DNA of 64,000 nucleotides, from assembly GCA_977862235.1 (NCBI GenBank), contig OZ374562.1, positions 930,001 through 994,000 on the forward strand, read 5' to 3'. The notes under the pieces were generated by a model. The model was not told the origin of the DNA, ran no database searches, and saw nothing but the letters and a program-made list of their open reading frames with translations. The stretch comes from Dudresnaya verticillata (lineage: Eukaryota). How positions within the stretch are numbered: position 1 is the first letter of the stretch; each line of letters starts with the position of its first letter. The position numbers and the translations under genes are program-made. Shown piece after piece: positions 11,680 through 54,284 of the stretch.

Positions 11680-11687
11680 CGCAGAGC

Positions 11688-12529
11688 TGTGGTAGAACGA
11701 AGTCCACGGTGACGCAGGGAAGTCTCGCACTGTAAGGAATGGCCTCGGAGCCTAACGAATGGCCTCGTAGCCTAGCGGAGAAACGAAAGGGGTGGTAGCG
11801 TGGTAGAGCGGAGCGACCAACACGAAGGGTCACGGTGTCAACGTTTTCGTGTGCGGAAGGGAGAACTCAAGCGATCGATCACCAGGGATGACTCCGGGTG
11901 CGCGGGGCTATCGAAAGCGAGGCTCGACCGTACCCGCGGTCACGAACACGAAGACACCGAACTCGAAGAAACAGGCGTTTACCGAAGACTCCGTGGTCCG
12001 GGCGCTAGTCGCTTACCGGAAACCCTCGGAGGTTGTGCCAGACGACTGGCTAAGTAATGCTACGTGAGCACGAAGACACGTCAACGCGGGAGATGGTTCG
12101 TACTCGAATGATTCGTAACAGACCCGGTTCCAACGAACGGTCGTCTCACGTATGGTGGTGGTTACGAAGTGCACCAGCGATGCATACGGAGGTGCACGCG
12201 CGTCGTGGGCCTCGGTGCCGTTATGCGCGGGAAACAACGGGAAAATCACGAAGGTGTCAGCGATTTCGTATCGGGTGCGCACTGTAATGCGAATGCCATC
12301 GTGGCGCGCGCGATCACGAAGTCAGCTCGCAATTCGTCCGGAGGTGTCAGCGATTTCGTATCGCGTGCGTGCTGTAATGCGAATGCAATCGTGGCGCTCG
12401 CAAAGTATGCGCAGTGTAATACGTTTGCCATCGTGGCGTGCGTATTCACGGAGTCACTTCGAAATTCGTATTTCTCGATTATTTTCACGTAGACCACGGA
12501 GTCGTTTTGCGCACAACGTCTATACCACA
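11688..12529 (-). repeat. 3' LTR (842 bp) of a minus-strand Gypsy element (LTR family L2)
   Basis: TGTGGTA...TACCACA ends; minus-strand PPT GAGGAGGGGGCCG abuts at 12530-12542; homologous copy at 28122-28236 plus 53402-53995; internal tandem duplication at ~12250-12440. Confidence 0.88.
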
Positions 12530-28121: not shown

Positions 28122-28236
28122 TGTGGTATAGACGCTGTGCGCAAAACGGCTCCGTGGTCTACGTGAAAATAATCGAGAAATACGAATTTCGAAGTGACTC
28201 CGTGAATGCGCACGCCACGATGGCATTCGCATTACA
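28122..28236 (+). repeat. Solo LTR of family L2, 5' piece
   Basis: Reverse complement of the ~12430-12529 end and the ~12283-12306 repeat unit of the L2 LTR; preceded by TSD GATGC (28117-28121). Confidence 0.92.
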
Positions 28237-29162
28237 CACTACGAAGGCGATTTTAAAATGATTTGATAATTTCCATGGTAATATCCATTATATTTCTTGC
28301 GTCAGATTTTGCGCCGGGCCCGACGGATGCGCATCATTAAAATCCCAAATATGCAGCATGAATATCCTTGCGACACAGCCTCGCGCCGTTGATTTATGTT
28401 TCATTTCCCCAGCGCGTTTTGATCTCTTGTTTCCGGAGGTTTGGGGCATTATCGTTCATGTTTGGATTTGTCTTCGCAATACTTCAAATTGCCCAGGCCT
28501 GGGTCATGAAAATTACGAGTTGTTTTGCGAATCCTAATGAATCTGGTTCAAGGGAGTAATGCTTCATTTCCTTTGTTCTCTCGCTTACAACACACGTGTT
28601 GCGATGCGGCGGCATCTCGCCAAATCACGGGCTAGAAACATCTCATTAATGCTGTAGCGCATCGCATGGGCTTGCGCTTTACTCGGCAGTAAACACTGGT
28701 TTCCCGCGTTTCAGAATGTACTTTCAAAAACAGACTGAAATAAAACGCTTTGAAAGTACATGCGTTGGAAAGGGGAGCGTGCCCTGAGCACGCTGGTGCA
28801 AACGGAGTAGAAAACTAAGTAGTAGTTCTCGAGTTATGTTGGTTGGCGTGCTAACCCGGCAGCGGGTCTGAAATAATTAATTTTGCTATAATTTCTGAGA
28901 TTTTTAATTCGGATTTGCGGTAACCTAGGCTACTTCCATAGGCCCCTCACCGCGCAGTAATTGCTGCCGCAACATTGCAGAACTACTCGTCAGTGCAATG
29001 TCGCGCATCCACACAACATACAGAGTACTGCAGCACTGCCATGAATTCCTTTCCGCGCCTCACTCCCGAAAATCTTCACGCATTCTTCAGCAGAATAACG
29101 CTCGTCGTGAGCGGGGAAGAAGCCCGGGTCAAGCCTGTGAGTTTGCAGCTTGGGAGTTCAGG

Positions 29163-31873: not shown

Positions 31874-34800
31874 GTGCCACCAGTGCCGGCACCTGTCTTC
31901 GCCTCCTCAGCAGTAATTACCAGTTGTGTCATCAGCTGGAAGGAGATCTCCGCGACGCGGAGACGAAACGGTCGGCAAGCTGGACCAGAAATGTCGACAT
32001 CTTCAACTGCAGTGCGTGAAGATAATGACGGCAAGGAAACTGTTACTTCCCCTACTCGAAGGCGTGTTCAGTTGCTCGAAAAAGGGCTGATAGTCGGCAC
32101 AGCTGAGCCGCTCGTCCCGCCAGAGCCTAGTGGAGCGGACAGTACAGGATGCTATTGCACTAGACTACATGGGCAATATCTGCACGAAGTCGAGGAGGAA
32201 GGGCAAACATTGGCGGTCATTTACAAAGTCAAGATAGAGGAAAAGTTTTCTTCGAAGCCATACCGTTACACCTACAAGGGCGTAGAAGATCCACCTGCTA
32301 CTCTTCGAGGTCTTGAGGTTGGAATGCATGTTTAGGACGTGTCGCAGATGCGCAACAAACCCGTTGGCGGCCGCTCCAATAGTAAACCTCACACACCAAC
32401 CCCCGCGACACGTCGAAACAGGCGTAAACAGGCCGTGAAAACACCACCCAAGGCTGGGAGAGGAGGAAAGCGACTCACTGTGGATTCCCCGCAAACAGCA
32501 CCGTCGCCAGCATTAACAGCGTCACATCTGCAGTACACACCTCGATCCAGACCTGCATGGCGACCTCGGCCACAGGTTTTAAACCTGGCAGATGGACCTA
32601 CTCCGCAAGAAGAAGAATCTAGTGACGAGGCATATGTACCGGGGAGTGAGGCGGACGATAGCGATACGCTTGAAAAGGCGGAGGAGGGGGCTGAAACAGA
32701 AGGACTAGTGGAACCAAACGCAATGTCCAGCCCTCCTGCGGAGACAAATGCTGCTGCAAGCCCAGGGCCGGAAGAGGAGGAAATGTACATGGAATAACAA
32801 AACACTCGGCAGAAGCGACGCTACGTCTCTCACAACAGGCCGAGAGGTAACCCCACTGCACCGTTGATGGCCAGCAAGCGCCGGAAACTGCTCGAAGACC
32901 GTGAGAGCACAAACATCTCATCGTGGGTATGCTGTCAGTCCAAACAATGCTTTGGAACAATCGAAAGCACATATGTGAAGGAGGAAGCAAGGCGTACAAT
33001 TGCAATGAATGGGGCAGCTCGGTGGGCATATCTACGAAGCCTGTTGGAACGCAACTCGAATATGTACTTCTTCAACGCCAGGCCGGTGTGTTACACATTT
33101 CTGGAACGGGCATTTGGATTTTCGAGGGACTTACAGTCGTCGACGAAAGGGACAAGACATGCCCGAAGGCGAACTGGTCCCGGAAAGAGTTCGCGAGATG
33201 CTTCAACTGACTCTCTTGAACTTATTGTGAGTTTCTTGGAAAGGGTAGTGGAAGCCACATCTGACGCAATGCCAGACAAAGATGAGCTCCATCTGCCCTT
33301 CTTTCAAAAGCAGGCGGTCTACGACGTCTTTTTACGTAACCTTGCCGAATTGTACCGAGGAAAGACGCCGCCCTCTCAGAGTTACTTTTACACTGTTTGG
33401 ACTACACATTGCGCAAGGATCAAAGTGCGCAAAACCCACCGATTCGCGAAGTGTGCCGAGTGCAAGACTGTGAGGGACCAACTTGCCCGCATGACGTCAG
33501 GGGGTGCAGACCAGACGGCGACGAAGGGATTGAGACAGCGCCGCAGGCGGGATATAGAGATGGTAAGGCAGGAAATAATCGAGTACCGGAAGAAATGAGA
33601 CATGGCAAACCTCTCGCCGACAAGGTATTGCTCAATGATTATCGATGGTGCAGATCAATCGGCGTATGGTCTGCCGCACTTCCATGTTCGATCGAAAGCC
33701 ACAACGGGTCATGCGCTGGCAGCAAAGTTAATAGGAGTACTGGACCACAGTGCTGCAGATCGATTGTCGTTATTAACAATGACTGCAGAGTTCGAATCCG
33801 GTGCAGACCATATTGTTGAGGCGTTGCACCGCGTGTTAGCAACCAAATATGATAGAGGGGAGGTTCGGGGCACTCTCTTTCTGCAAGGAGACAACTGTAC
33901 ACGTGAAAACAAGAACACGTTCCTACTCGTGTACTTGGAGTCGCTCGTGTCGTGGGGGGTATTCACTGAAGTGCATATGTCTTTCTTGCCAATCGGGCAC
34001 ACACATGCCGACATCGACCAAACTTTTAGTTGCACCTCCAGGAGGCTTCGCGTCCACGACGCGGTGACTATGCAGGACTTGATGGAGGAACTACGCCAAT
34101 CGTACACACCCGCGCCTATAGTGACGCGCATGCGACACATCGTGAACTGGTCCGGAATCTGCAAACAGGAAAAGTGTATTGGGGGGTTGAGCCTTTCTCC
34201 CACTTTCGCTACTTCAAATTGTCCAGATCGGAACTGAACTCCGGCTCTACTGCAGCTTATTATAAGAAGAAGAGTGAGGTACGATTGGGTTGCAAGTATT
34301 CGTGGGAGGCGTTGAAAACAAAGGGACCTCAACAAGGATTCTTGCTATTCCCACCCGAATTGGGAAAGACACCTGCCACTGCGATAATCTCCCCTCCAGA
34401 TAAGGAAGAAGTAAGCAAGCGCTTACGCTCAGAGGAGCTGCGAATCCATGACTCCGCGAAGCTAAAGGACTTACAAAAGTTGCGCGATGAGGTCTTCCGC
34501 GATCGCGAGGAGCCTCTGCATTGGGACCTGACAAAGGTATTCGAGAAGAAGGGGGTATATATAAAGTCGGAGCAAGTTTTCGAAAGCGATGGTGAACTGG
34601 GGGAGGATGCAGATAGAGACGCTGAGGAGCAGGATGACGCTGAGCACGAGACTCAGCGTGCTGACTTGACGTATGGTGTCAACCTTTTCGTGGTGCTGAA
34701 CATTAAGGACAATAATGTGCCTTTCTGCATCGGACAGGTACAGGGCTGGGAGAAGGACAGAGCGGGTGTCGTTTGCACCCTGTCAATCAGGTGGTATGAG

Positions 34801-34998
34801 GTTGGTTCAGGACAGGACGCGTGGGACGGTAAATATCGCCCTTCTGTCTGCGCCAGAACCAAGAAGGCATGGACTGACGATGTTGATGCCGCGTCTGTCC
34901 TCGTTGAGTTTGAGAAGCTGTCTAATAATGCCTGCCCCAAGCCGTTAAGAAGAAGATACGAGACTCCTTACAGAAATCGTAGCACGATAGTCCATTAA
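31874..34998 (+). pseudogene. Sola-like (DUF7869-type) DDD transposase with extra N- and C-terminal domains
   Basis: 31874-34237 is one frame with three internal stops, then a frameshift to 34030-34998; KCAECK, IIDGADQ, LQGDNCTRENKN, FLPIGHTHADIDQTFS. Confidence 0.75.
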
Positions 34999-37112: not shown

Positions 37113-37459
37113 GGCCGGATAGGTTTCTGCGAATGCGAGCCGCCAGGACCTATCCGGCAATATTGATATTAGTTTTTAGGTTTTCTCGACCCGGCGACGC
37201 AAAAACCTTTCTAATAGGTATTCTGGTTGCGTGCTTACAAATACCTACAAAGGTATTTCTGAAGCGCCGACAGCAAAACTTATTGCAATAGGTTTTGTGA
37301 AAGTGATTTGGAAAACACCTATATAGGTATTTCCAGATTCCGTGTAGAAATACCTATTAAACAGATATTCGATCTCTCGCGCCGTGAAAACCTATTTGTC
37401 AATATTGATATTAGTTTTTAGGTTTCTGCAAGGTCGTGCTGTGAAAACCTATCCGGGCT
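37113..37459. repeat. AT-rich MITE-like fold-back segment
   Basis: CCGGATAGGTTT at the left and AAACCTATCCGG at the right; AATATTGATATTAGTTTTTAGGTTT twice inside; no TSD seen. Confidence 0.6.
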
Positions 37460-38172: not shown

Positions 38173-38619
38173 TCAAACTGGAGGGGCAGGAAAATGTGAT
38201 TCTGGATCTGAATCCAACTCGATGTACACCTCTTCTCTGTGTTCAATTCCCAACCTTTCTTCAATTGAACGTAGTCTGTCCCGAGCCTGCCCGGCAAACC
38301 TCATGACGTGTACAACGACCTTTCCCACGCGGTTGAAAACATCGCTATATATGGCATCCAGGCGCAGTCGTGCGTCATCAATGAACGACCTCATCTCAAG
38401 AACCTCAGCCCGAAGAGTCTGAACTTCACGCAACATTGTCGTGGGGTCAAGACTCGGAATTCGGTCGCGATGTCCATGTGAGAAGTTCATGGGGTATATC
38501 TTTGTCCACGTTCGAGACATTGCAAGGCCATTGCAGCAAAGCCGCACTTGATCTGGAATAAACGCTGTAGACTGAGGATTCTGAAAAGCTCGTGCCAGGC
38601 GAATATACCCAATATGCAT
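38173..38619 (-). CDS. Small coiled-coil protein; real start may be ~38490 or 38435
   Basis: VQTLRAEVLEMRSFIDDARLRL..ARDRLRSIEERL. Confidence 0.45.
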   Translation of the reverse strand: MHIGYIRLARAFQNPQSTAFIPDQVRLCCNGLAMSRTWTKIYPMNFSHGHRDRIPSLDPTTMLREVQTLRAEVLEMRSFIDDARLRLDAIYSDVFNRVGKVVVHVMRFAGQARDRLRSIEERLGIEHREEVYIELDSDPESHFPAPPV

Positions 38620-38649
38620 CTCGGAGGTTACTCTGACGGTAATATCGTA

Positions 38650-39320
38650 CTACGATGATTCCAACTTGTTCAAATCCTATGCAAAGAACCCCACCAGCCC
38701 ACTCAGCGTCTCCGGCGCTTCCTCTTGGCCTGTGAAACTATACGGATACTTCCGGGACTCACATCCAGGTAATGCGCTGAATCCGTAAAGAGAGACGAGC
38801 TGTTCTCCTTCCCTCGCAACCTTCGACAACGACACTCCATGAAGAGTCTCAGTTATTTTGGAACTCTCAGCACTTCGTTGCAGATGCTGTTCCGACCTTG
38901 TCTCCGTCTTGAAGCAGGACTACCTTCGAAGCACCCCGCAGAGGATCAGATTCTGAGCCTTCCGGACTAGTTCGTTTCTGTTTGGCGGGTCGCTGGTCTG
39001 TTACAGTTGATGTTATAACATTCTCCTCATTATGTACTACTTTCCGTCTCTTCTCAGCGGAATCAGTATCGGTAGTCGTTTCGCGGTGTTGCCGTTTGAC
39101 GACAGTGAGTGTGGAAGAGCACTGATTTTCATTACACACATCGACTGCGATTTTCTTCAAACGATCATATGCCAGTCTGAATGTTGCGGGGTTCTGCTCG
39201 ATGCCCACAGTCGGACGCCCCGTTCTCAAACCTGTAATGCAAGTGGTCAGGGTACCTCCGTAGGCATCCAAAACGCGTCCACCATCGGGACAAAAAGTTG
39301 TCATGACCTCCATTTTTGCA
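38650..39320 (-). pseudogene. N4/N6 DNA methyltransferase-like SAM-binding half fused to a C-terminal domain shared with the 31874-32335 ORF
   Basis: FCPDGGRVLDAYGGTLTTCITGLRTGRPTVGIEQNPATFRLAYDRL fits the beta-class VLDPFxGSGTT..GR..IGIE..A..RL consensus; frameshift at ~38870. Confidence 0.7.
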
Positions 39321-39912
39321 GCGCAAGGGCAAGACGAAACCGAAGATAGCACAGGACTCGCTGACAACTCTCATCCAGGCCTGGATTAATACTGAGTTCG
39401 ATCCGTGCCGAGTTGCTTTGTACACCATTCTTGAGCGCTTCAACCTCTGTTGTCAAACTGGAATACCTGTCGCGAAGATTTTCCAGCTCTCCAATTGTCT
39501 TCGTATGTTGAACAGATTCGCGACCAGTCACTGGTATTGCCTGTTCCGTGTACACGTCTGTCTGATCTTCTCTGTCAGATATACGACCTCTTCGCGTAAA
39601 CCCATCAGACGGGCTCGTGTTTTTCCTCCACGACAGCAACAGGCTGTCGTTTGTTTCCCGATCTTCCTCCCAGACCCGAAGAAGCCTACCAGCCAGGAAC
39701 TCGACTTTTTCCACGGATGCCATATAGCCGTATTGGGCGTTTCCGGCATACTCTATTGTCGCGACAGCGATCACATCTCCTTCATCAATTTCATCAACGG
39801 CGAGTACCTCAGCATCCCACCACAGCTCATCCCCATTGTCCATCTCCCAGGCGACTTGCATCCATTCGTTCGCCAGCGGTAGTGCATTCCGCTCTCTGCA
39901 GGCGCGCCTCAT
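39301..39912 (-). CDS. Tudor/Agenet-like beta-barrel plus coiled coil, probably 3'-truncated
   Basis: WMQVAWEMDNGDELWWDAEVLAV..ATIEY; IGELENLRDRYSSLTTEVEALK. Confidence 0.5.
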   Translation of the reverse strand: MRRACRERNALPLANEWMQVAWEMDNGDELWWDAEVLAVDEIDEGDVIAVATIEYAGNAQYGYMASVEKVEFLAGRLLRVWEEDRETNDSLLLSWRKNTSPSDGFTRRGRISDREDQTDVYTEQAIPVTGRESVQHTKTIGELENLRDRYSSLTTEVEALKNGVQSNSARIELSINPGLDESCQRVLCYLRFRLALALQKWRS

Positions 39913-40751
39913 AATACCAACCGCAATTGTAATAACAATTGATTCATTCGGGAGCGGGAAAAGTTGGCTTCAGATCTCTGAAGGGAATTGCGAGAAAGCA
40001 ATCATTGCCATCATGCTCTGTCGAGTTCCGAATATGCGTATACGCCCGAACTTGCACGCTGTTTCAGGCACGATCAAAGAAATGCTTCACAGTACTCAAA
40101 TTTCATGGATTGCAGCAATATTTTCCCTCGCTGCACAAAATGCACCTGGACTGTCTTGCTGAGTGTGCTCAACGTCCATGGACGTACATCAGGTCCTCGA
40201 GGTTAACCTACTGGGAACGGCCGTTACTGTCTTCTACTCAAAACATCTCGAGTTATTGAAGACAATATGCGCGTCACCGGGAGGAAGACTTCCGAGAGAC
40301 GGCGTGAATTGCAAGCCAGTCCCTCCAAAACTCCCAGACAACGGAAGGGGTCTTCGAAGGGAAACGGCTTTGTTGGACCTCCTCGCGAACTTGCTGACAC
40401 TGTGGGAAAGAGGAACAAGTCCGGCTGGGCCTCAAAATTACAGGAATTGTAAATGCCTTCAACGGAACAGAACACACCGGGATCTGACATCATCACTCGA
40501 CGAAGTGATAGACATGGAAGAGAGCATGGTGCTGATCATAGCCCTAAGGGAAGTAAGCGGCCGCTTCTTCATACCCTTCCAGAGACGCAGCCACGACTGG
40601 GTGATGATATATATGACCCCACAACATCTCCGGAGTCACCTCCAATGAGGCGGAGAGCCACTCAAGCTGTAGGAGTTCTCCAGAACGAAGATAACCGAGG
40701 TAGTGATGCAGAGTACCATTCACCCGGGGCCCGGATATTTCCCTCGGTAAA

Positions 40752-42626
40752 ATGAGAAAGATAGCTCTAAAGGTTCCACGGTCTGTGCCCCTAGTACGCA
40801 TAAGTGACGGTGTGGGTGATGATGAAGAGATTGGCCGAAGAGAAGATGTGGATCCGAGGTACCCGACCCCGGGGTCGAAAGGATTACCTCTTGATAGCGG
40901 GGAAGACACTCCTTTGTACATCAGAGGTCGATCCATGTTTATTACTGCACCGAATACGATTAAGCCTGGCCCGGCGCGGATGTTCACTCAGTCTCTGGTT
41001 ATGAGAGACACAGCCGTGAATAACCTCATTGAGCAGATTGAGAGAAGCATCAAGCGTCATGTGGATGCGATTCAGGATGTCGTCTTAAAAACGTTTGCCG
41101 AGCTGGACAAGAATATGGCCGAGGTTCGAAGAGATGTGCAAGACATCCGGTCTGCGGCACAACTGAGGGGGTCCGGGCCCGGATCGTGGCCGGCAGGTGG
41201 CTCTAAGAAGACAGCTCGGGCCATTTTTGACGCCAAACTCGATAACTTCACACGTCATGCCAACTTGGTATTCAACCAAACAGTAATGTACAGAGTGTTC
41301 AGTACTTGCGTTTCCAACTGTGTCTCAAGTGCTGTTTCAAACAATGATGATACCTTGAGGGCGTCGGCCGACACTGTTTGTTCCATCCTATTTGCGAAAC
41401 AAGTTGATCAAGCCAAGAAGACATTCACGGAAGGCACCGGGAGAAGCATTGGTGCGTTTCGGTACTTGGTAGTAACGAATGCAGTATACAACGTTCAGCA
41501 GAACCGCTTCGGTCAGTTCAAGCCTCTACCTGAGATCGATGTGCCTGGAGGGCCTGGTGCCGGCCGGCCGGCCGGTCAAAGTCAGCCCTCGATATCCAAA
41601 TCCGGGGAGGCACCCGCTTCGCAGACGTCAGATATACAGGGCATACCCCCTGGAAACGGAGTAGCTGATGACACTATAGACCACCCCGACCGGCTCAAAC
41701 CGAAGATCATTGCTGAGGAGCATATCAAGAATGCCCGAATGTTATGCGAAATATCAAGTACGAAGACGAGCGATGTGGACGGCCGTCCAACGGTACACTT
41801 AGGCGCAGAACGCGAGGTGCAAGAACGCGCTAAGACAATTGTCGTGAAGGATATGCCGACAAGTCAAGATGTTGCATACTTCGGTGCCTCGAAGATATAC
41901 AAGATTGTTACAGAATGGCTCCGCGAAAGCAGGCAGAAGGCGAAGAACGCTTTGGCAGAAGACCTGACGTACCTTATGGTCAACTGGTCCCAGTTGAACT
42001 GTTCAGGTGTGGAGCAGACCACTGTGCGGGTGCGGTGGTCGACAACAGAAGCAAGTGATGGCACATCTCTGTTAAAAGACGACTTGAACCTTGTAGAAAT
42101 CCCGGAAACAACGCGAAACCCAAAGCGCACTATTTATATTGATGTCGCCAACACAAAGTTGTACAATGGGATACTGAAAGATAGGGTTGATATGATGGTA
42201 AGCGTGTGCCATGACGTCTTCGTGCTTCCATGCGCTGCCGACGGGCGCCAGAGCTCCGATAGGAAATTACGGAAGAGGCAGGGTGGCGAGAAGAAACCGC
42301 TTAAGAGAGTTGTCAACTTAGTTGAGGTGGCAATGAAGTTCTGTGTGGCGTTTACCCAAAGCACATCAAAGGAGTACTCTCCTGAGATTTGCCTTGGGGC
42401 ACATACAAAAGTGCTGCACACAGTGATGTCCATCGCTCATGTTCTGCGCGTTTTGGTGAAGAAGTTTGTCGCAGTGCACTTCGACGGGAGGGGGCGTTTC
42501 CGCGGCCGCGGAATAACGACGAAAGGAATAAAGGTCGGAGCATTGGCACTGGACAAATTATTTGCAGGAAACTCTAATATGAAAAGCGTTTTGACCAGTC
42601 GAGCGTTGCGAATGACCGAGAAGTAA
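40752..42626 (+). CDS. 624-aa unknown protein with N-terminal coiled coil; probably extends both ways past lesions
   Basis: Long uninterrupted ORF inside the CACTA element; heptads LIEQIERSI..LDKNMAEVRRDVQDI. Confidence 0.75.
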   Translation: MRKIALKVPRSVPLVRISDGVGDDEEIGRREDVDPRYPTPGSKGLPLDSGEDTPLYIRGRSMFITAPNTIKPGPARMFTQSLVMRDTAVNNLIEQIERSIKRHVDAIQDVVLKTFAELDKNMAEVRRDVQDIRSAAQLRGSGPGSWPAGGSKKTARAIFDAKLDNFTRHANLVFNQTVMYRVFSTCVSNCVSSAVSNNDDTLRASADTVCSILFAKQVDQAKKTFTEGTGRSIGAFRYLVVTNAVYNVQQNRFGQFKPLPEIDVPGGPGAGRPAGQSQPSISKSGEAPASQTSDIQGIPPGNGVADDTIDHPDRLKPKIIAEEHIKNARMLCEISSTKTSDVDGRPTVHLGAEREVQERAKTIVVKDMPTSQDVAYFGASKIYKIVTEWLRESRQKAKNALAEDLTYLMVNWSQLNCSGVEQTTVRVRWSTTEASDGTSLLKDDLNLVEIPETTRNPKRTIYIDVANTKLYNGILKDRVDMMVSVCHDVFVLPCAADGRQSSDRKLRKRQGGEKKPLKRVVNLVEVAMKFCVAFTQSTSKEYSPEICLGAHTKVLHTVMSIAHVLRVLVKKFVAVHFDGRGRFRGRGITTKGIKVGALALDKLFAGNSNMKSVLTSRALRMTEK

Positions 42627-42799: not shown

Positions 42800-43810
42800 A
42801 GCCTAGGCCTAGGTAATCTGGGCCTACTGTTGTACAACGTGCACAACAGTTAGTTGTATCTGTTAATGAAACGTGAGGATATGTGTTAAACCGCTCCTCA
42901 CCGCCAGGTAGTAGTCACTACTGAGCTATCAAGAGTGGGCCCACTCCTTTCACAATGCATGCCGTCGTGCACAAAATGAAAGCAGGAAGGAGCTAGCTCC
43001 GCAGCAGCTGCTTCAGCCTAGGCTATAGCCTGCAACACCTGGTTGTAACCAAGCAATGTGTTAGACAGCAACTAGCTGCTGTTAGCTAGAAATTGCTTCA
43101 GTTGATAACGTTACAAGTACTTCAGGTATCAGTTCGAAGCCTAGGCTGGATGGGAACTGAAGGACCATGCCCACGCCTTCAACACCGCATGCCGTCGTGC
43201 ACAAAGTGAAAGCAGCAAGCAGCTGCTTTAACATAGGCTATAGCCTGGTTTCAATCTTCAGCCGCAGCTATTAGAGCACGGAGCGGAGCACAATTGAGCC
43301 ATTATGTTGCAAAGGTCTAGCTCCTCGCAGCTTGCAAGCTTAAGCTTTTGTACCACAATTGTACCAGGTAGAAAGAGTGGGCAAACTCCTTCATTATGCC
43401 GTCGTGCGCAACATGAAAGCAGCTGCTGGCAAGCAACTGCTTTAGCCTAGGCTACAGCCTGGTTTCAATGTTCAGTCGCAGTTATATAGCTGCATAGCTC
43501 TCATATGAGAGCACAGCGCGGAGCACAATTGAGCTGTTATGTTGTAAAGGTCTAGCTCCTCGCAGCTTGCAAGCTTAAGCTTTTATACCACAATCGTACC
43601 ATGGTAGAAAGAGTGGACCCACTCCTTCATTATGCCGTCGTGCACAAAACAAAAGCAGCTGCTAGCAAGCAACTGCTTTAGCATAGGCTATAGCCTGGTT
43701 GTAATCAAGCAATGTGAGCAATAAGCAGCAAGCAACTGCTTGACAATAGGCAACAGCCTGGTTGCAACCAAGAAACGTGTTTAACAGGAGCTAGCAGCTA
43801 GCTAGCAGGT
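42800..43810. repeat. Degenerate tandem array, about 4 units of ~200-240 bp
   Basis: ATGCCGTCGTGC(A/G)CAA at ~42959, 43188, 43396, 43632; repeated AGGCTA(T/C)AGCCTG; lies between convergent genes. Confidence 0.85.
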
Positions 43811-48507: not shown

Positions 48508-51500
48508 ATGGATCAGCCGCATTGGAAAGCACAATATGGGCGTCGCAGAAGTCGCCAACATTCTCGGGTCGACTCTGTGGGAATGCGTGCCAATCTAACC
48601 CACCTATTCCAGTTCGAGAGCTCCAACGACGCATCGGCAATTGCAATTGATGAAGGACCAGCCGGTCCCAGCCCAAGCCGTTTACCCGGCTTCGAACCAG
48701 GGTCTCCTACCGTTCAGATTGCGAATGAAGACTCCGCATGCGCGCAAGACACCGCGTTCGTGAGTCCTTACCAGGAAAGCCTGGGCCCAGGCGAAGGGCC
48801 ATTCTCCACTGCGGTACAGCATAGACCTCTTCGAGCTTCGGACCCTCCCGGGAACCACGTGGCGGGAGAAAGGGGTGATGACGACTTCGGCATAGCCATA
48901 AAAGGGCCCCGCAGCGAAAGAAACGCATTTCTCCGAGACGAGGTGCTCCCGGGAGGCTCCTGTGAGGGGCCCCTTCCTGGAGCCGGGCAAGACAGTCCAG
49001 AATTCGATGAAGATGATGTGCCCCCCGAGTTGTTTGATTCTTTCGATGAGATCATCGACCTGGAAAATGGTTAATCTATGAGGAGGTGGGAGCAAGATAG
49101 GTTATGTGACCCTGTTGCACGAATCGAAGGGCCGCAGCCCTTCGCTTGCTTTGATTCGCGCAACAGGATGGACGCGTCGGGCCGGACTTCCGTTGGTTCT
49201 GCGGTGCCGGCGCCATTTTCTCGGCAGGATCTCGTGAAGTTTCTGCAGAAAAGAAGAACTCTGCTGAACTGGGAGGAGCTGTTCGCTCTGATTTGTGTTT
49301 GTGGAAGCGTCCGAATGACTGTGCGTCAGTATGAAACTTTGAAGAGACTGGGCAACTGGCTGGAGCGGCTTCAGAGTCGCGAGGCCTCGCTACCTGTGTA
49401 TTCTACCATCCAACGAACGATATTCCCGTTTTCAATCAAACATTGCTTCGTTGCGAGTTACAATGTTTCCCTTGCTGTTACGAAGCAAGATCTGAAGAAG
49501 AGGGGAAGTGGGATCTCTTTCACTGCCGTTGAAGAAGAGTATGGGCACATGAGAGGGCGGAATAAGAGAGTGAGAGCGGCCGCTCCCTGACCTCCTCAAC
49601 ACGCTGCAAGCCTTGAAGCAGACGAGACGGCACGACGATTTGCTCCTGTCAAGATCATATTCCCCTCGGAGTGGGCCAAGATGGATATAGCAACTTACCC
49701 TGTATTCAAAGATTTGTTTCCTAATTTCGACACCGGCAACCCCGGGGGCCCGGCGTCTGACTGCAGCTACGCCCAGAGTCCTGCTGACCCGAATCCGTCG
49801 AGATAACAAGAGTTGTGAGGCACCGCCGAAATGCTTTAAACGCTGCTGAGATGTTGTTCGTTTCAAAAGGGGAGAACATCGTTAGAGCGAACATAGGAAT
49901 AACGGTGGATGTTCATGTTCAGCGAGTTCCGAGGCGTGTTGTAACAAATCCGCGTTCAGCACGGTCCTGTGCCTTGAGGGCAAACCCCACCGGGGCCCCG
50001 GGTGTCATCTTGACTGGACAAATTGCTGCCTGCTGGTGTGTCGCTTCCAGAAGCTGCCAAACTGAAAGCTCAAAGCGAGCAGTTGAGGAGGAAAAAGGTG
50101 TTGAGAAGGACATCATCAACCTGTTAAGCGCTGGTACGAAAGTTGATTGTATCCACGGAGGCTGTAACGAAATCGCGGACGCTAACCAGACGATGACTAC
50201 AGACTTGCAAAGCACGGTCGTTCTTCCAGGGGACTTTTGCTCGCTTTTCAGTATTCCCGAGCGACGCCCAGAAGTCTTCGTGGTCTGTATGCTGGTCAGC
50301 CGGTTCTGGCGATATTGGGATGGGGAGCCTTCGCAGCTCTTAATATGGATAGATATGGACAACAGTTGGAGTTCAGGCGTTGATTTCTGCGGGGAGGGGT
50401 CGCTATTTCAAGTCCTGAAGGAAAGGACGCCAGTTAAGGAAGTTCACCTTGGCGTGTGTCGAGATGGAAGGGAGCGAGCACTCCGAAATGCCATTGATGA
50501 AGAAGACATGCCCATGGAATTCCTTTCTCGGCCGAGAAATATGGGGTTCCTTCATTCTGGAGAGAGATATGTCGAATATCGCCTTTTGTTGTACTGTGAC
50601 GACTTTCAACCCTGTACTTCTTTGCTCCCGCAAGGCTCTGCGGGTGGGTGCTACCTTCTCCCACTCGGTATTTCACCGCAAAGCCGTGCGAAGAGATCAG
50701 CTGTACGGCTTTTGGGACTGACGCCGCCCGGTGTGAGCACAAATGCGGTTCTGTGGGACATCGTACCAGACCTCGTGAAGGGATGTACTGAAGGCTTCAA
50801 AGGGAAGAGCCCAAACGGGGAGCATGTCAGGATCTTCCTTGACCCGGTCGGGTTCATTGCGGACTTCCCGGCGGCCGCCAAGTCTACAGATGCTGTTGGA
50901 CACACTGGCAAGGCCTCTTGTACCCACTGCAACTTTCTATGCGTATTCAGTGATGTTTCAGGTAAGTTCGGCTATACTGTGCGACTGCACTCCCAACATT
51001 ATTCAAGCGTTCGATGCAAAGAACGGCATAAGGCTTTGCGGGAGAGTGGAATTTGCGAGCACCAAGCACCATGTATGGGAATGTCGAAGGAGTATGACGA
51101 CAGTGGCATAAAATCGCTATTGTACTTGTCTGAGGAGTTGGAGAGAGTCCGGCCGGACGTGTCTCTTAACGCCAATGGAGAACGTGTCGTGCCGTGCACC
51201 TTCGACCCGTACCTATCACAGGTCGTTGCCCCAGATCACTTACTCACCGGCTTGATCAAGAATACTCTTACAACCTGCTTCCTGGTTTTATCTCCAAAGG
51301 GGAAAACCATTGCTGATATCATAATTTTCCAGGGACTTCGCGACAACGGGATGCTCACCCAGAATTCCGTCTTCGAGAGTATGTTACACTCCATGCCGCT
51401 TTCCGAACTGTACTGCGTTCTCACTGTGTCTATTTCTGCCTTTCGTATAACCATGGGAAAGGAGAGCGATGCTTACCGCTTGGCCAAGTGCCTGCAGGAA

Positions 51501-52771
51501 CTCATTGCAGGAACATTCTGGTGGCCTCTTGCACATGTGGACGGAGAAAAAGCTGTGGAGACGTTTCGAAAGTCGGGTGGCCACCCGTATCTGCGCCGCC
51601 TGCAGAATCTTGCGACGAAATATGTCAAGTTGTGCAACGAGTACATTGAGGCAAACGATCTTGGCGGCGATTTGGACAAGCCCAATCTACATCGCCTCAT
51701 GGAACTGTACTATCACACTATCCCAATGTTTGGGCATGCAAGACATGTCATGGAACTGGTATTCGAGTGTGCGCACTCACCTCTGAAACGATGTGTGACA
51801 AGAAGGAATCAGCACAATGCGCATATATCCGCCGTGGAGCATGTCCTCGGAAACGACTGGCAGGGCAGGCTTGCCCTCCTTAGACACACTTCGGAGCATG
51901 GAAAAAATCAAGAACGCATTATGGCGCGCAGAGGTCTCAGAAGGCTACTTCTCGGGCCCGAGATCTGCTCCGTTAAGGAAGAGGACCCCGAAGTCAGTAC
52001 CGTTATTCAGGACTTGGACGACAAGATAGAAGGGATGTTCGTGGAGCCGCTAATGGAAGAACTAAGGGCAGATGGAAAGGTGAATCCTTCCTGGTCGATA
52101 TCGGAAGCGGAGTGGACAGGGACGACAGTTGCCAAAGAGCTGAAAGGCGTAGAGCGAGCTACAACAGCTGGACATACGTGGGAAGATTTGCTTGAAGAGG
52201 CTGTGTCGGCAATCGAGGAGTACTACCTAGACTTCGACAGGCGAAATGGAGCTGCCGCCCCAGCCTTCATCATGCGCGGAGCGAAGCGAGTTAGAACGAC
52301 GACGGTTGCGGGCCCGCATCGGGCCTACAGGCACGATACAGTTGACCATGGGTCGGTATTAAGATGCCTTGTTTCGCCCGGGGATGAAAGCAGAAACGTC
52401 ATTGTACCAGAAAGTGATGGAAGTGGAAATGTGAAGCTGTTCGCAGTGTATGCTGCCTTCAGTTTGGAGGGAATGGAAGAAATGTGTCAGCTCGCGGGAC
52501 TTGGGCAATTGTTCTTCAGTGCTTGAAGACGGATGCGAGGCTGCAGGTGAGCGCGGCCGCGCTATGTGCGGATATTCAGGTGGTGAAATTGACAAGGGGC
52601 GTGAGGAGAGTCGCTGTGTACCACGTCTGCGTTTTTCAAGAGGACGGGTTGAATCTGGAATGCGAAGTCGATGAGGAACAAAGAACTATTAGGCACACGG
52701 AGTCAGTGTTGGATGGAGGGTTGTACTTTTTTCAGACGAAGGAGCAAGGGTACCCTCCGCGAATGGCGTAG
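48508..52771 (+). pseudogene. CACTA/CMC (Plavaka-like) DDE transposase with stops and frameshifts
   Basis: LLYCDDF, GSAGGCYLLPLG, IADFPAAAK, GHTGKASCTHC, APDHLLTG, KPNLHRL, FGHARHVMELVFECAH in the CMC order; 903-aa open core. Confidence 0.88.
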
Positions 52772-52940: not shown

Positions 52941-53401
52941 CGGCGAGTGCCGTTATAAGACCTACGAAACGGTCACTTGTTACAGTTGTGTAGGTTCATA
53001 GTCATGAAGTAAAGCATGTTTTCTGATGTGTACGAAGTGGCTGTGTCATTAAGTAATGTAGGCCAATGCATGCGTATAGATTCGATGGGCGCAAAATGTA
53101 AAGTGGAAATTGCGACGATACATGAAATATAATACTTGATGAAGTATAAAATCGCAGTAAGGCCGCAGGTGTTACAAAGCGCATGCGTAAATCTGCGGCG
53201 GTAATGAATCTGACTCAAAATTGTGACGCGCCAGAAATGAATTCCAATTATCGGGTATCATAATTTCTAATGCATTCCAAAATCACTTTGCAATTTCTGG
53301 CGCATGTTTTCAGACCCTGGCGCATCAAAATCCCATGGGCTAAATCCATTATTTTGCGATTTATTCTAATATGATCAAGCCGAATTCGCGTTCGTAGTGC
53401 A

Positions 53402-53995
53402 GTGCGCACACGATACGAAATCGCTGACACCTTCGTGGTTTTCCCGTTGTTTCCTGCTCGAACGGCTCCGAGGCCCACGACGCGCGTGCACCTCCATATG
53501 CATTGTTGGTGCACTCCGTAACCGTCACCATACGTGAGGCGACCGTTTGTTGGCACCGAGGCCGTTACGAATCATTCGAGTACCAACTGTCCCTCGTTTT
53601 GACGTGTATTCGTGCTCACGTAGTAGAAATTGGCTAGGCGTGGAACGACCTCCAAGGGTTTGCGGTAAGCGACTAGCGCCCGGACCTCGGAGTCTTCGGT
53701 AAACGCCTGTTTCTTCGAGTTCCGTGGCTTCGTGTTCGTGACCGCGGATACGGTCGAGCCTCGCTTTCGATGGCCCCGCGCACCTGGAGTCATCCCTGGT
53801 GATCGATCGCTTGAGGTATCCCTTCCGCGCACGAATAGGTTGACACCATGGTCCTTCGTGTTTGTCGCTCCGCTCTACCACGCTACCACCAATTTGCCTT
53901 TCTCCGTTAGGCTACAAGGCCACACGTTAGGCTCCGAGGCCATGCCCTGCAGTGTGAGACTTCCGCGTCTCTCGATGGACATTAATTATACCACA
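53402..53995 (+). repeat. Solo LTR of family L2, 3' piece
   Basis: Colinear reverse complement of 11688-12282; ends TATACCACA, followed by TSD GATGC (53996-54000). Confidence 0.92.
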
Positions 53996-54284
53996 GATGC
54001 AGGGTACGTAGTGTATAGGTAGTGTCGCTCTCGTACCATGTACGAAAGTTAGGCCAGCTGTCCGTTACGGAGTTCATGGGTTTTCAGTACACCGCACTTC
54101 TATTTAGGTTGTGAGGCCCCATCCTCCCTCTGCGTTTCTGCCGCTCTACCATTGGTACCCTATACTGGCTCTGTGGCTATGGCCCTGCGTCACTCCTATA
54201 GTATGCAAGAGACCCCAAGGCACTTTAGCACAGGGTGGAACTCCTCTCGCACCCGGAGTATCCCCGGTGCCGCTTGGTTCGCAA

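Follow-up and report, generated by a model that had tools for sequence, protein, structure and literature searches.

Introduction

The closest described counterpart of the locus reported here is Sola1-1_Ec32 of Ectocarpus, in which a gene for a 1,104-residue protein with a ParB-like and an N4/N6 DNA methyltransferase domain lies opposite the transposase, and for which it has been proposed that such proteins bind and modify (methylate) their own element (PMC12477816). In red algae, a preprint on Bostrychia describes two further cargo genes, PAG2, with a PF01555 domain (a putative N6-adenine methylase) and a SET domain, and PAG3, with a ParB and a 2OG oxygenase domain, both carried by giant Plavaka/EnSpm, Mutator, Zisupton and Fanzor elements; the copies are mostly degenerate, and tandem inverted-repeat arrays occur beside PAG3 (10.1101/2025.02.11.637652). 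Giant En/Spm elements of 16-20 kb with 4-5 ORFs are described from Chondrus (PMC6431247), and N6_N4_Mtase genes number 66 in Asparagopsis and 4-6 in three other red seaweeds (PMC12115072). A relative of a different kind is N4CMT of bdelloid rotifers, a host gene with an SPPY motif and a C-terminal chromodomain (PMC8885841). The clade treated below is not listed in the accessible text of Iyer et al. (PMC4738411), the accessible parts of PMC8566409, PMC13519894 and PMC12636532 contain nothing on this methylase family, and a literature search with most subscription papers outside its scope found no experimental study of these algal enzymes.

Here, we analyze a 64,000-nucleotide stretch of Dudresnaya verticillata DNA (contig OZ374562.1 of assembly GCA_977862235.1, positions 930,001 to 994,000), hereafter the window. 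The original prediction, made from the letters alone, had placed a bacterial-type amino-methyltransferase next to a Tudor-like reader inside a eukaryotic transposon and had called such enzymes rare in eukaryotes, a rarity that was overstated in view of the red-algal PF01555 cargo, the Ectocarpus ParB-methylase cargo and the 66 genes of a single red seaweed. We conclude with good confidence that the locus represents the 3′ quarter of a broken gene for a ParB-like plus beta-class DNA methyltransferase, which was likely cargo of a giant cut-and-paste transposon and was likely brought up against an unrelated upstream gene by a deletion.

The window holds the last quarter of a methylase gene

The peptide RVLDAYGGTLTT...TGRPTVGIEQNPATFRLAYDRL lies within the minus-strand ORF 38,867-39,370, and the suggested comparison of this ORF with PF01555 returned a match to profile positions 177-219 of 221 (E 9.6e-4, 19.6 bits), which falls below the gathering cut-off of 26.7 bits. 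The fragment also matched the C-terminal part of PDB 8URK (M.BceJIV; E 3.9e-7), and a profile of the family described below, run in six frames over the whole window, aligned with columns 668-824 at 39,313-38,864 (97.9 bits). Together these matches bear out the assignment to the SAM-binding C-terminal part of a beta-class amino-methyltransferase; the motif I region is present in the C-terminal part of the PF01555 domain, and the methylase piece starts abruptly at MEVMTTFCP. The same search returned columns 816-894 at 38,895-38,659 in a second frame (24.2 bits, iE 2.4e-9). This is the C-terminal beta domain of the same gene behind a frameshift, overlooked in the original prediction, and it scores 44.7 bits with a domain-only profile. 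The frameshift, near 38,885-38,895, splits the domain, and a stop codon at 38,677-38,679 replaces its conserved Trp (Table 1).

Table 1 Features of the window around the methylase remnant (positions in the window; a dot marks a feature given no strand).
Feature	Position	Strand	Basis or remark
Second, methylase-free copy of the C-terminal beta domain	32,003-32,359	+	Family profile; domain-only profile 57.2 bits
Broken DUF7869 gene, candidate owner of the methylase gene	32,798-34,998	+	PF25273, E 1.7e-42
Array of fixed-spacer inverted repeats TAGGT-N23-ACCTA, candidate for protein binding (ParB-type site or subterminal repeat)	37,120-37,451	.	6 units at ≤1 mismatch, 8 loosely
Short helical ORF directly after the methylase remnant	38,173-38,649	-	No Pfam family
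Methylase remnant as a whole	39,313-38,659	-	Last quarter of the family protein
Remaining C-terminal beta domain (LHG...YPY...PP...WD)	38,659-38,895	-	Second frame; family profile
Low-complexity linker, then first strands of the C-terminal beta domain	38,896-39,099	-	In frame with the methylase piece
C-terminal beta-class amino-methyltransferase part, SAM-binding motif I region to domain end	39,100-39,313	-	PF01555, 8URK, family profile
Upstream ORF, beta-rich, Trp-rich N-terminal region plus probable coiled coil	39,301-39,969 (Met at 39,912)	-	Frame separate from the methylase
639-codon ORF, divergent from the upstream ORF	40,707-42,623	+	No Pfam family
EnSpm/Plavaka-like transposase candidate, other candidate owner	49,075-52,523	+	Motifs only: CDDF, ADFPA, CxxC, FExxH

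For profile columns 1-667 of 897, nothing significant was found in the six-frame search of the whole window, and the copy lacks the ParB motif (column 109), the DPPY motif (column 508) and the EKN/EK motif (column 661). Catalytic motif IV (D/S/N-P-P-Y/F; column 508) was covered nowhere in the window by the profile search or a motif scan. The original prediction was thus right that the fragment has no DPPY or SPPY and that the N-terminal part is lost, as the six-frame matches cover columns 668-894 only. Two candidates for motif IV were set aside: IMTSPPY at -25,652 occurs 13 kb further downstream, antisense to a Gypsy-like ORF, has no family-profile score and is regarded as a chance occurrence, and a loose SPPH at -40,656 runs into a stop codon two codons further on. 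Against the missing profile segment, the 300 nt that precede the break scored 1.4 bits, a value equalled by 7 of 300 shuffles, while six intact controls gave 34-70 bits in five cases and 6.0 in the sixth; a decayed remnant of about 20 codons may lie upstream of the break.

The locus is homologous to the family and has lost about 667 of the 897 profile columns, with one frameshift and one nonsense codon in what is left. The catalytic half is absent, and the copy, judged by its sequence, is dead and unable to make an active enzyme. Over 60 columns, the fragment shares 55-57% identity with the two relatives closest to it, and it keeps 15 of the 17 highly conserved columns within its span, indicating that the parent gene was an ordinary family member. 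As a side observation, the decayed genes of the window contain stops at 32,333, 33,596 and 38,677, two of which are TAG at conserved Trp positions; these fit a G-to-A change, yet CpG is not depleted in the window.

Full-length relatives combine a ParB-like domain with a methylase

With the 90-residue fragment as query, a search of 1.84 billion representative proteins gave 164 matches at E up to 0.001, the best 150 of which were examined. Among the matches listed, the best form one family of 850-1,050-residue proteins and fragments thereof, 42-60% identical over the fragment. The top-ranked match, P0001, and a few others were set aside as multi-stretch matches to repeat proteins with no similarity to the family. 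The family proteins consist of an N-terminal ParB/sulfiredoxin-like domain, a helical region, a beta-class methyltransferase and a C-terminal beta domain of about 100 residues; the last has no Pfam or Atlas match and presumably resembles the Tnp1/En/Spm-like domain of CACTA TnpA. In a structure model of P0003 derived from an alignment of 33 members (mean pLDDT 79), residues 563-817 superpose on CcrM (Z 20.6, rmsd 3.5, 229 residues aligned), and residues 18-165 match ParB-like PadC (Z 9.5), pNOB8 ParB (Z 8.4) and KorB and sulfiredoxin (Z 7.7), scores that are modestly above background. At least 100 bits on the family profile were reached by 74 of 173 proteins, 33 of which had served to build it; 29 of the 74 span the ParB motif, motif IV and motif I, and 16 of these 29 also the C-terminal domain, counts that include near-identical cluster members. 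The ParB-like domain is thus fused to the methylase in the relatives (29/74; fold Z 7.7-9.5) and deleted in the window copy.

The relatives have complete PF01555 domains with DPPY, in which motif IV precedes motif I and the fold is CcrM-like. In 37 chosen members that span the site, motif IV reads DPPY in 22 and DPPF in 2, is degenerate in 13 and is never SPPY, a distribution (24/37 against 0/37) that by the usual rule points to 6mA rather than 4mC. The rule assigns DPPY to N6-adenine and SPPY to N4-cytosine methylation, and the domain has switched specificity repeatedly (PMC8885841). The family thus likely methylates N6-adenine rather than N4-cytosine, as far as the motifs tell, and the earlier suggestion that an intact member may methylate DNA gains support from the same 24 proteins. 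The 13 without DPPY/F suggest that some family members may be without catalytic activity. In a side comparison of P0002-P0164, the ParB DGxxR motif and DPPY/F tended to be lost together, DPPY/F being kept in 14 of 16 proteins with DGxxR and in 2 of 9 without it, although most of these losses fall into two clades and are not independent. Long intact ORFs that have lost both motifs suggest catalytically dead DNA-binding subfamilies.

Motif I, examined in 36 members, conforms to [YF][AG]GT in 28 and to YGGT in 8, while [FY]xGxG occurs in none. The YGGTL of the window copy, which the original prediction took for an altered FxGxG, is therefore the family norm and not a sign of decay. The full-length relatives likewise supplied the motif IV looked for, whereas the Tudor fusion looked for with it is absent: Pfam scans of 40, 33 and 32 proteins, in sets that overlap and include some non-family proteins, detected no Tudor, chromo or SET domain in the family. 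The proposed module of a Tudor reader and a methylase, modeled on bdelloid N4CMT, finds no support in these relatives. Both are permuted beta-class N6_N4_Mtase proteins in eukaryotes (PMC8885841), and the fold match to 8S9N reaches Z 16.9, but the family here has DPPY, with SPPY in 0 of 37 members, carries its ParB-like domain at the N terminus and lacks chromo and Tudor domains, in contrast to the SPPY-bearing, chromodomain-fused host gene as described in the accessible text.

Bacterial beta-class N6A methyltransferases (CcrM, M.BceJIV, M1.HpyAVI) share the fold and the motif order (Z 19.7-20.6), and a phage protein annotated as ParB/Sulfiredoxin aligns over 812 columns (E 3e-10). However, identity to bacterial and phage proteins is only 12-27%, and the family differs from the bacterial enzymes in its [YF][AG]GT instead of FxGxG and in its extra helical and C-terminal beta domains. 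The bacterial- and phage-type fold might suggest contamination or a recent bacterial insertion, but this explanation is effectively refuted: the fragment is continuous with Gypsy, Helitron and DUF7869 sequence, the best 20 of 205 phage records match the methylase domain only (23-28% identity), no phage record covers 80% of the query, and a search of 185,579 prokaryote genomes with the family motif pattern, which 27 of 49 family proteins match, returned nothing. In a FastTree phylogeny, the window fragment clusters with 34 family rows, and 23 other matches fall outside this group (support 0.84), a result that the profile favors; on 72 shared columns, the non-family protein P0046 is drawn next to the fragment. 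A word-index search returned no longer relatives of the methylase piece, and loci of the relatives were not found in viral contigs, metagenome contigs or prokaryote genomes. As no DNA context was found for them, the link of the family to transposons comes from the published elements and from this window.

The upstream reading frame is likely an unrelated gene

The original prediction described the fragment as abutting, out of frame, an ORF with a Tudor-like domain and a coiled coil. The abutment and the frame hold: the upstream ORF overlaps the methylase ORF by 70 nt in a different frame, and the two meet in a short run of A that directly precedes the region of homology. A coiled coil is modestly supported by TPR_MLP1_2 (E 0.0023) and a heptad pattern. 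The Tudor fold was not confirmed. The ORF matched neither a Tudor nor any other Pfam family and had no PDB match below E 1.4, a single-sequence model reached pLDDT 36, and nothing could be learned from aligning its domain to the BAH-like end of the DUF7869 gene. Atlas leads scored 0.81-0.89, all below 0.9, with Tudor-knot, Agenet and Spin-Ssty clusters at 0.81-0.85, where shuffled proteins reach 0.8 in a third of cases. The ORF may encode a Tudor/SH3-like barrel.

The overlap of the frames and the A run, together with the Tudor-type Atlas leads, could be read as a natural reader-methylase fusion of the N4CMT type that was split by a one-base indel or a sequencing error, since a single-base indel would join both frames. 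We consider this very unlikely. The joined product would still have neither motif IV nor the EK motif, another frameshift and a stop codon follow downstream, no relative carries a Tudor or chromo domain, and the Atlas leads lie in the range that shuffled sequences reach. Furthermore, the upstream ORF matched none of the 173 collected proteins (best E 1.7) and, as weaker evidence from a word-index search, nothing among 1,239 longer candidates. The neighboring Tudor-like gene is thus likely unrelated to the methylase piece, and the simplest reading of the junction is that a deletion of about 2 kb or more likely left two unrelated genes abutting.

The surroundings are rich in transposons

The window is eukaryotic and transposon-dense, with Gypsy reverse transcriptase/RNase H, Helitron, PIF1 helicase, DUF7869 and transposase-like ORFs. 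This transposon landscape, viewed with the published algal elements, suggests a red-algal host. Two loci are candidate owners of the methylase gene. One is the broken DUF7869 gene, DUF7869 being a domain that we take to be transposase-like; the other is the EnSpm/Plavaka-like candidate, whose 912-codon ORF (49,788-52,523) contains a C(2)C motif, candidate D/D/E motifs and, as the sole HxxxH, one after the candidate E, and has no Pfam match. The two loci flank the fragment and lie on the strand opposite to it. No element termini or target duplications were found in the window, and inverted-repeat searches gave short matches only. Accordingly, of the claim that the methylase gene lies inside a eukaryotic transposon, the setting is plausible from the flanks, while the ends of the element were not found. 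The 639-codon ORF and the short helical ORF are possibly further cargo genes. Elsewhere in the window, two non-coding inverted copies of about 600 bp (11,687-12,296 and 53,388-53,996) are 87% identical and 41 kb apart, and a partial third copy lies at 28,122-28,237.

The second copy of the beta domain lies just upstream of the DUF7869 gene, 6 kb from the fragment, and it too has a stop at the conserved Trp. That a methylase-free copy exists so close by tells us that modules of the family do occur apart, as they would if the fragment were a gene piece captured, in the manner of a Pack-MULE, by a non-autonomous element that never held the full gene here; the inverted-repeat array described below would then be a subterminal repeat to which a transposase or TnpA-like protein binds. 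En/Spm elements typically carry subterminal arrays of repeats in both direct and inverted orientation, and no termini could be tied to either transposase, both of which agree with capture. However, the family order of methylase, linker and beta domain is kept over about 650 nt, as in a truncated gene, and we consider capture improbable. It differs from a truncated cargo gene, which we prefer, in history alone, and the copy is dead in both cases.

Inverted-repeat arrays and comparison with described elements

The TAGGT-N23-ACCTA array lies 1.2 kb past the end of the methylase gene. Its six units compare with a mean of 0.75 and a maximum of 3 in shuffled sequences, and none of 100 shuffles reached six, for a pattern that was chosen after viewing the region. 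When spacers of 5-44 nt were scanned, 23 alone gave more than one match in the window. The eight units of the loose count align without gaps, and their spacer sequences are divergent. The array is a candidate for a ParB-type or dimer-binding array and equally a candidate for a subterminal repeat serving the transposition machinery. A second array, at 42,800-43,790 between the 639-codon ORF and the next gene, consists of tandem units of about 235 bp with AGCCTAGGCT-type palindromes and has a CCTA/TAGG core in common with the first.

In intact relatives, the ParB-like domain would bind repeats within the element, the DPPY methylase would write N6-methyladenine near the bound repeats, and this methylation would protect or mark the element; locally, the candidate site for such an intact enzyme would be the TAGGT-N23-ACCTA array. 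More specifically, the array might be a cognate parS-like loading site of the element's own ParB-methylase. An intact enzyme would clamp onto the DNA there and extend N6-adenine methylation along the transposon that carries it, a tentative reading that we consider unlikely.

Among the described systems, Sola1-1_Ec32 resembles the family in its two-domain architecture, in its size class (1,104 residues compared with 850-1,050 here) and in the position of the gene opposite the transposase strand, as is the case here with respect to both candidate transposases. It differs in coming from a brown alga, and the likeness is one of description, not of sequence; the accessible description mentions neither a C-terminal beta domain nor a DPPY census, and the window copy is a dead quarter of a gene. 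With PAG2 and PAG3, as far as the accessible text describes them, the locus shares PF01555 as transposon cargo, a setting that is likely here, mostly degenerate copies and inverted-repeat arrays beside a ParB-domain gene (PAG3). However, PAG2 has a SET domain, which was seen in none of the overlapping sets of 40, 33 and 32 proteins scanned here, and the partner of ParB is a 2OG oxygenase in PAG3 and a methylase in our family, again compared by description only.

Conclusion

The methylase fragment of the window is real but dead, and genes of its kind have already been published as transposon cargo. The proposed Tudor-methylase parallel with the rotifer N4CMT is removed. What is new is the motif census, which favors 6mA over 4mC, and the conserved C-terminal beta domain, together with a candidate binding array, its spacer fixed at 23 nt, through which the self-marking idea can be tested in vitro. 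The family matters as transposon-borne ParB-methylases have been proposed, in the accessible account of the Ectocarpus element, to bind and methylate the element that carries them; self-binding and self-methylation by the intact relatives described here would follow that published proposal. If the array is indeed the loading site of such an enzyme, it would give the published hypothesis, as yet only a proposal, a concrete target sequence, and a self-marking system of bacterial or phage design would be at work in a eukaryotic nucleus.
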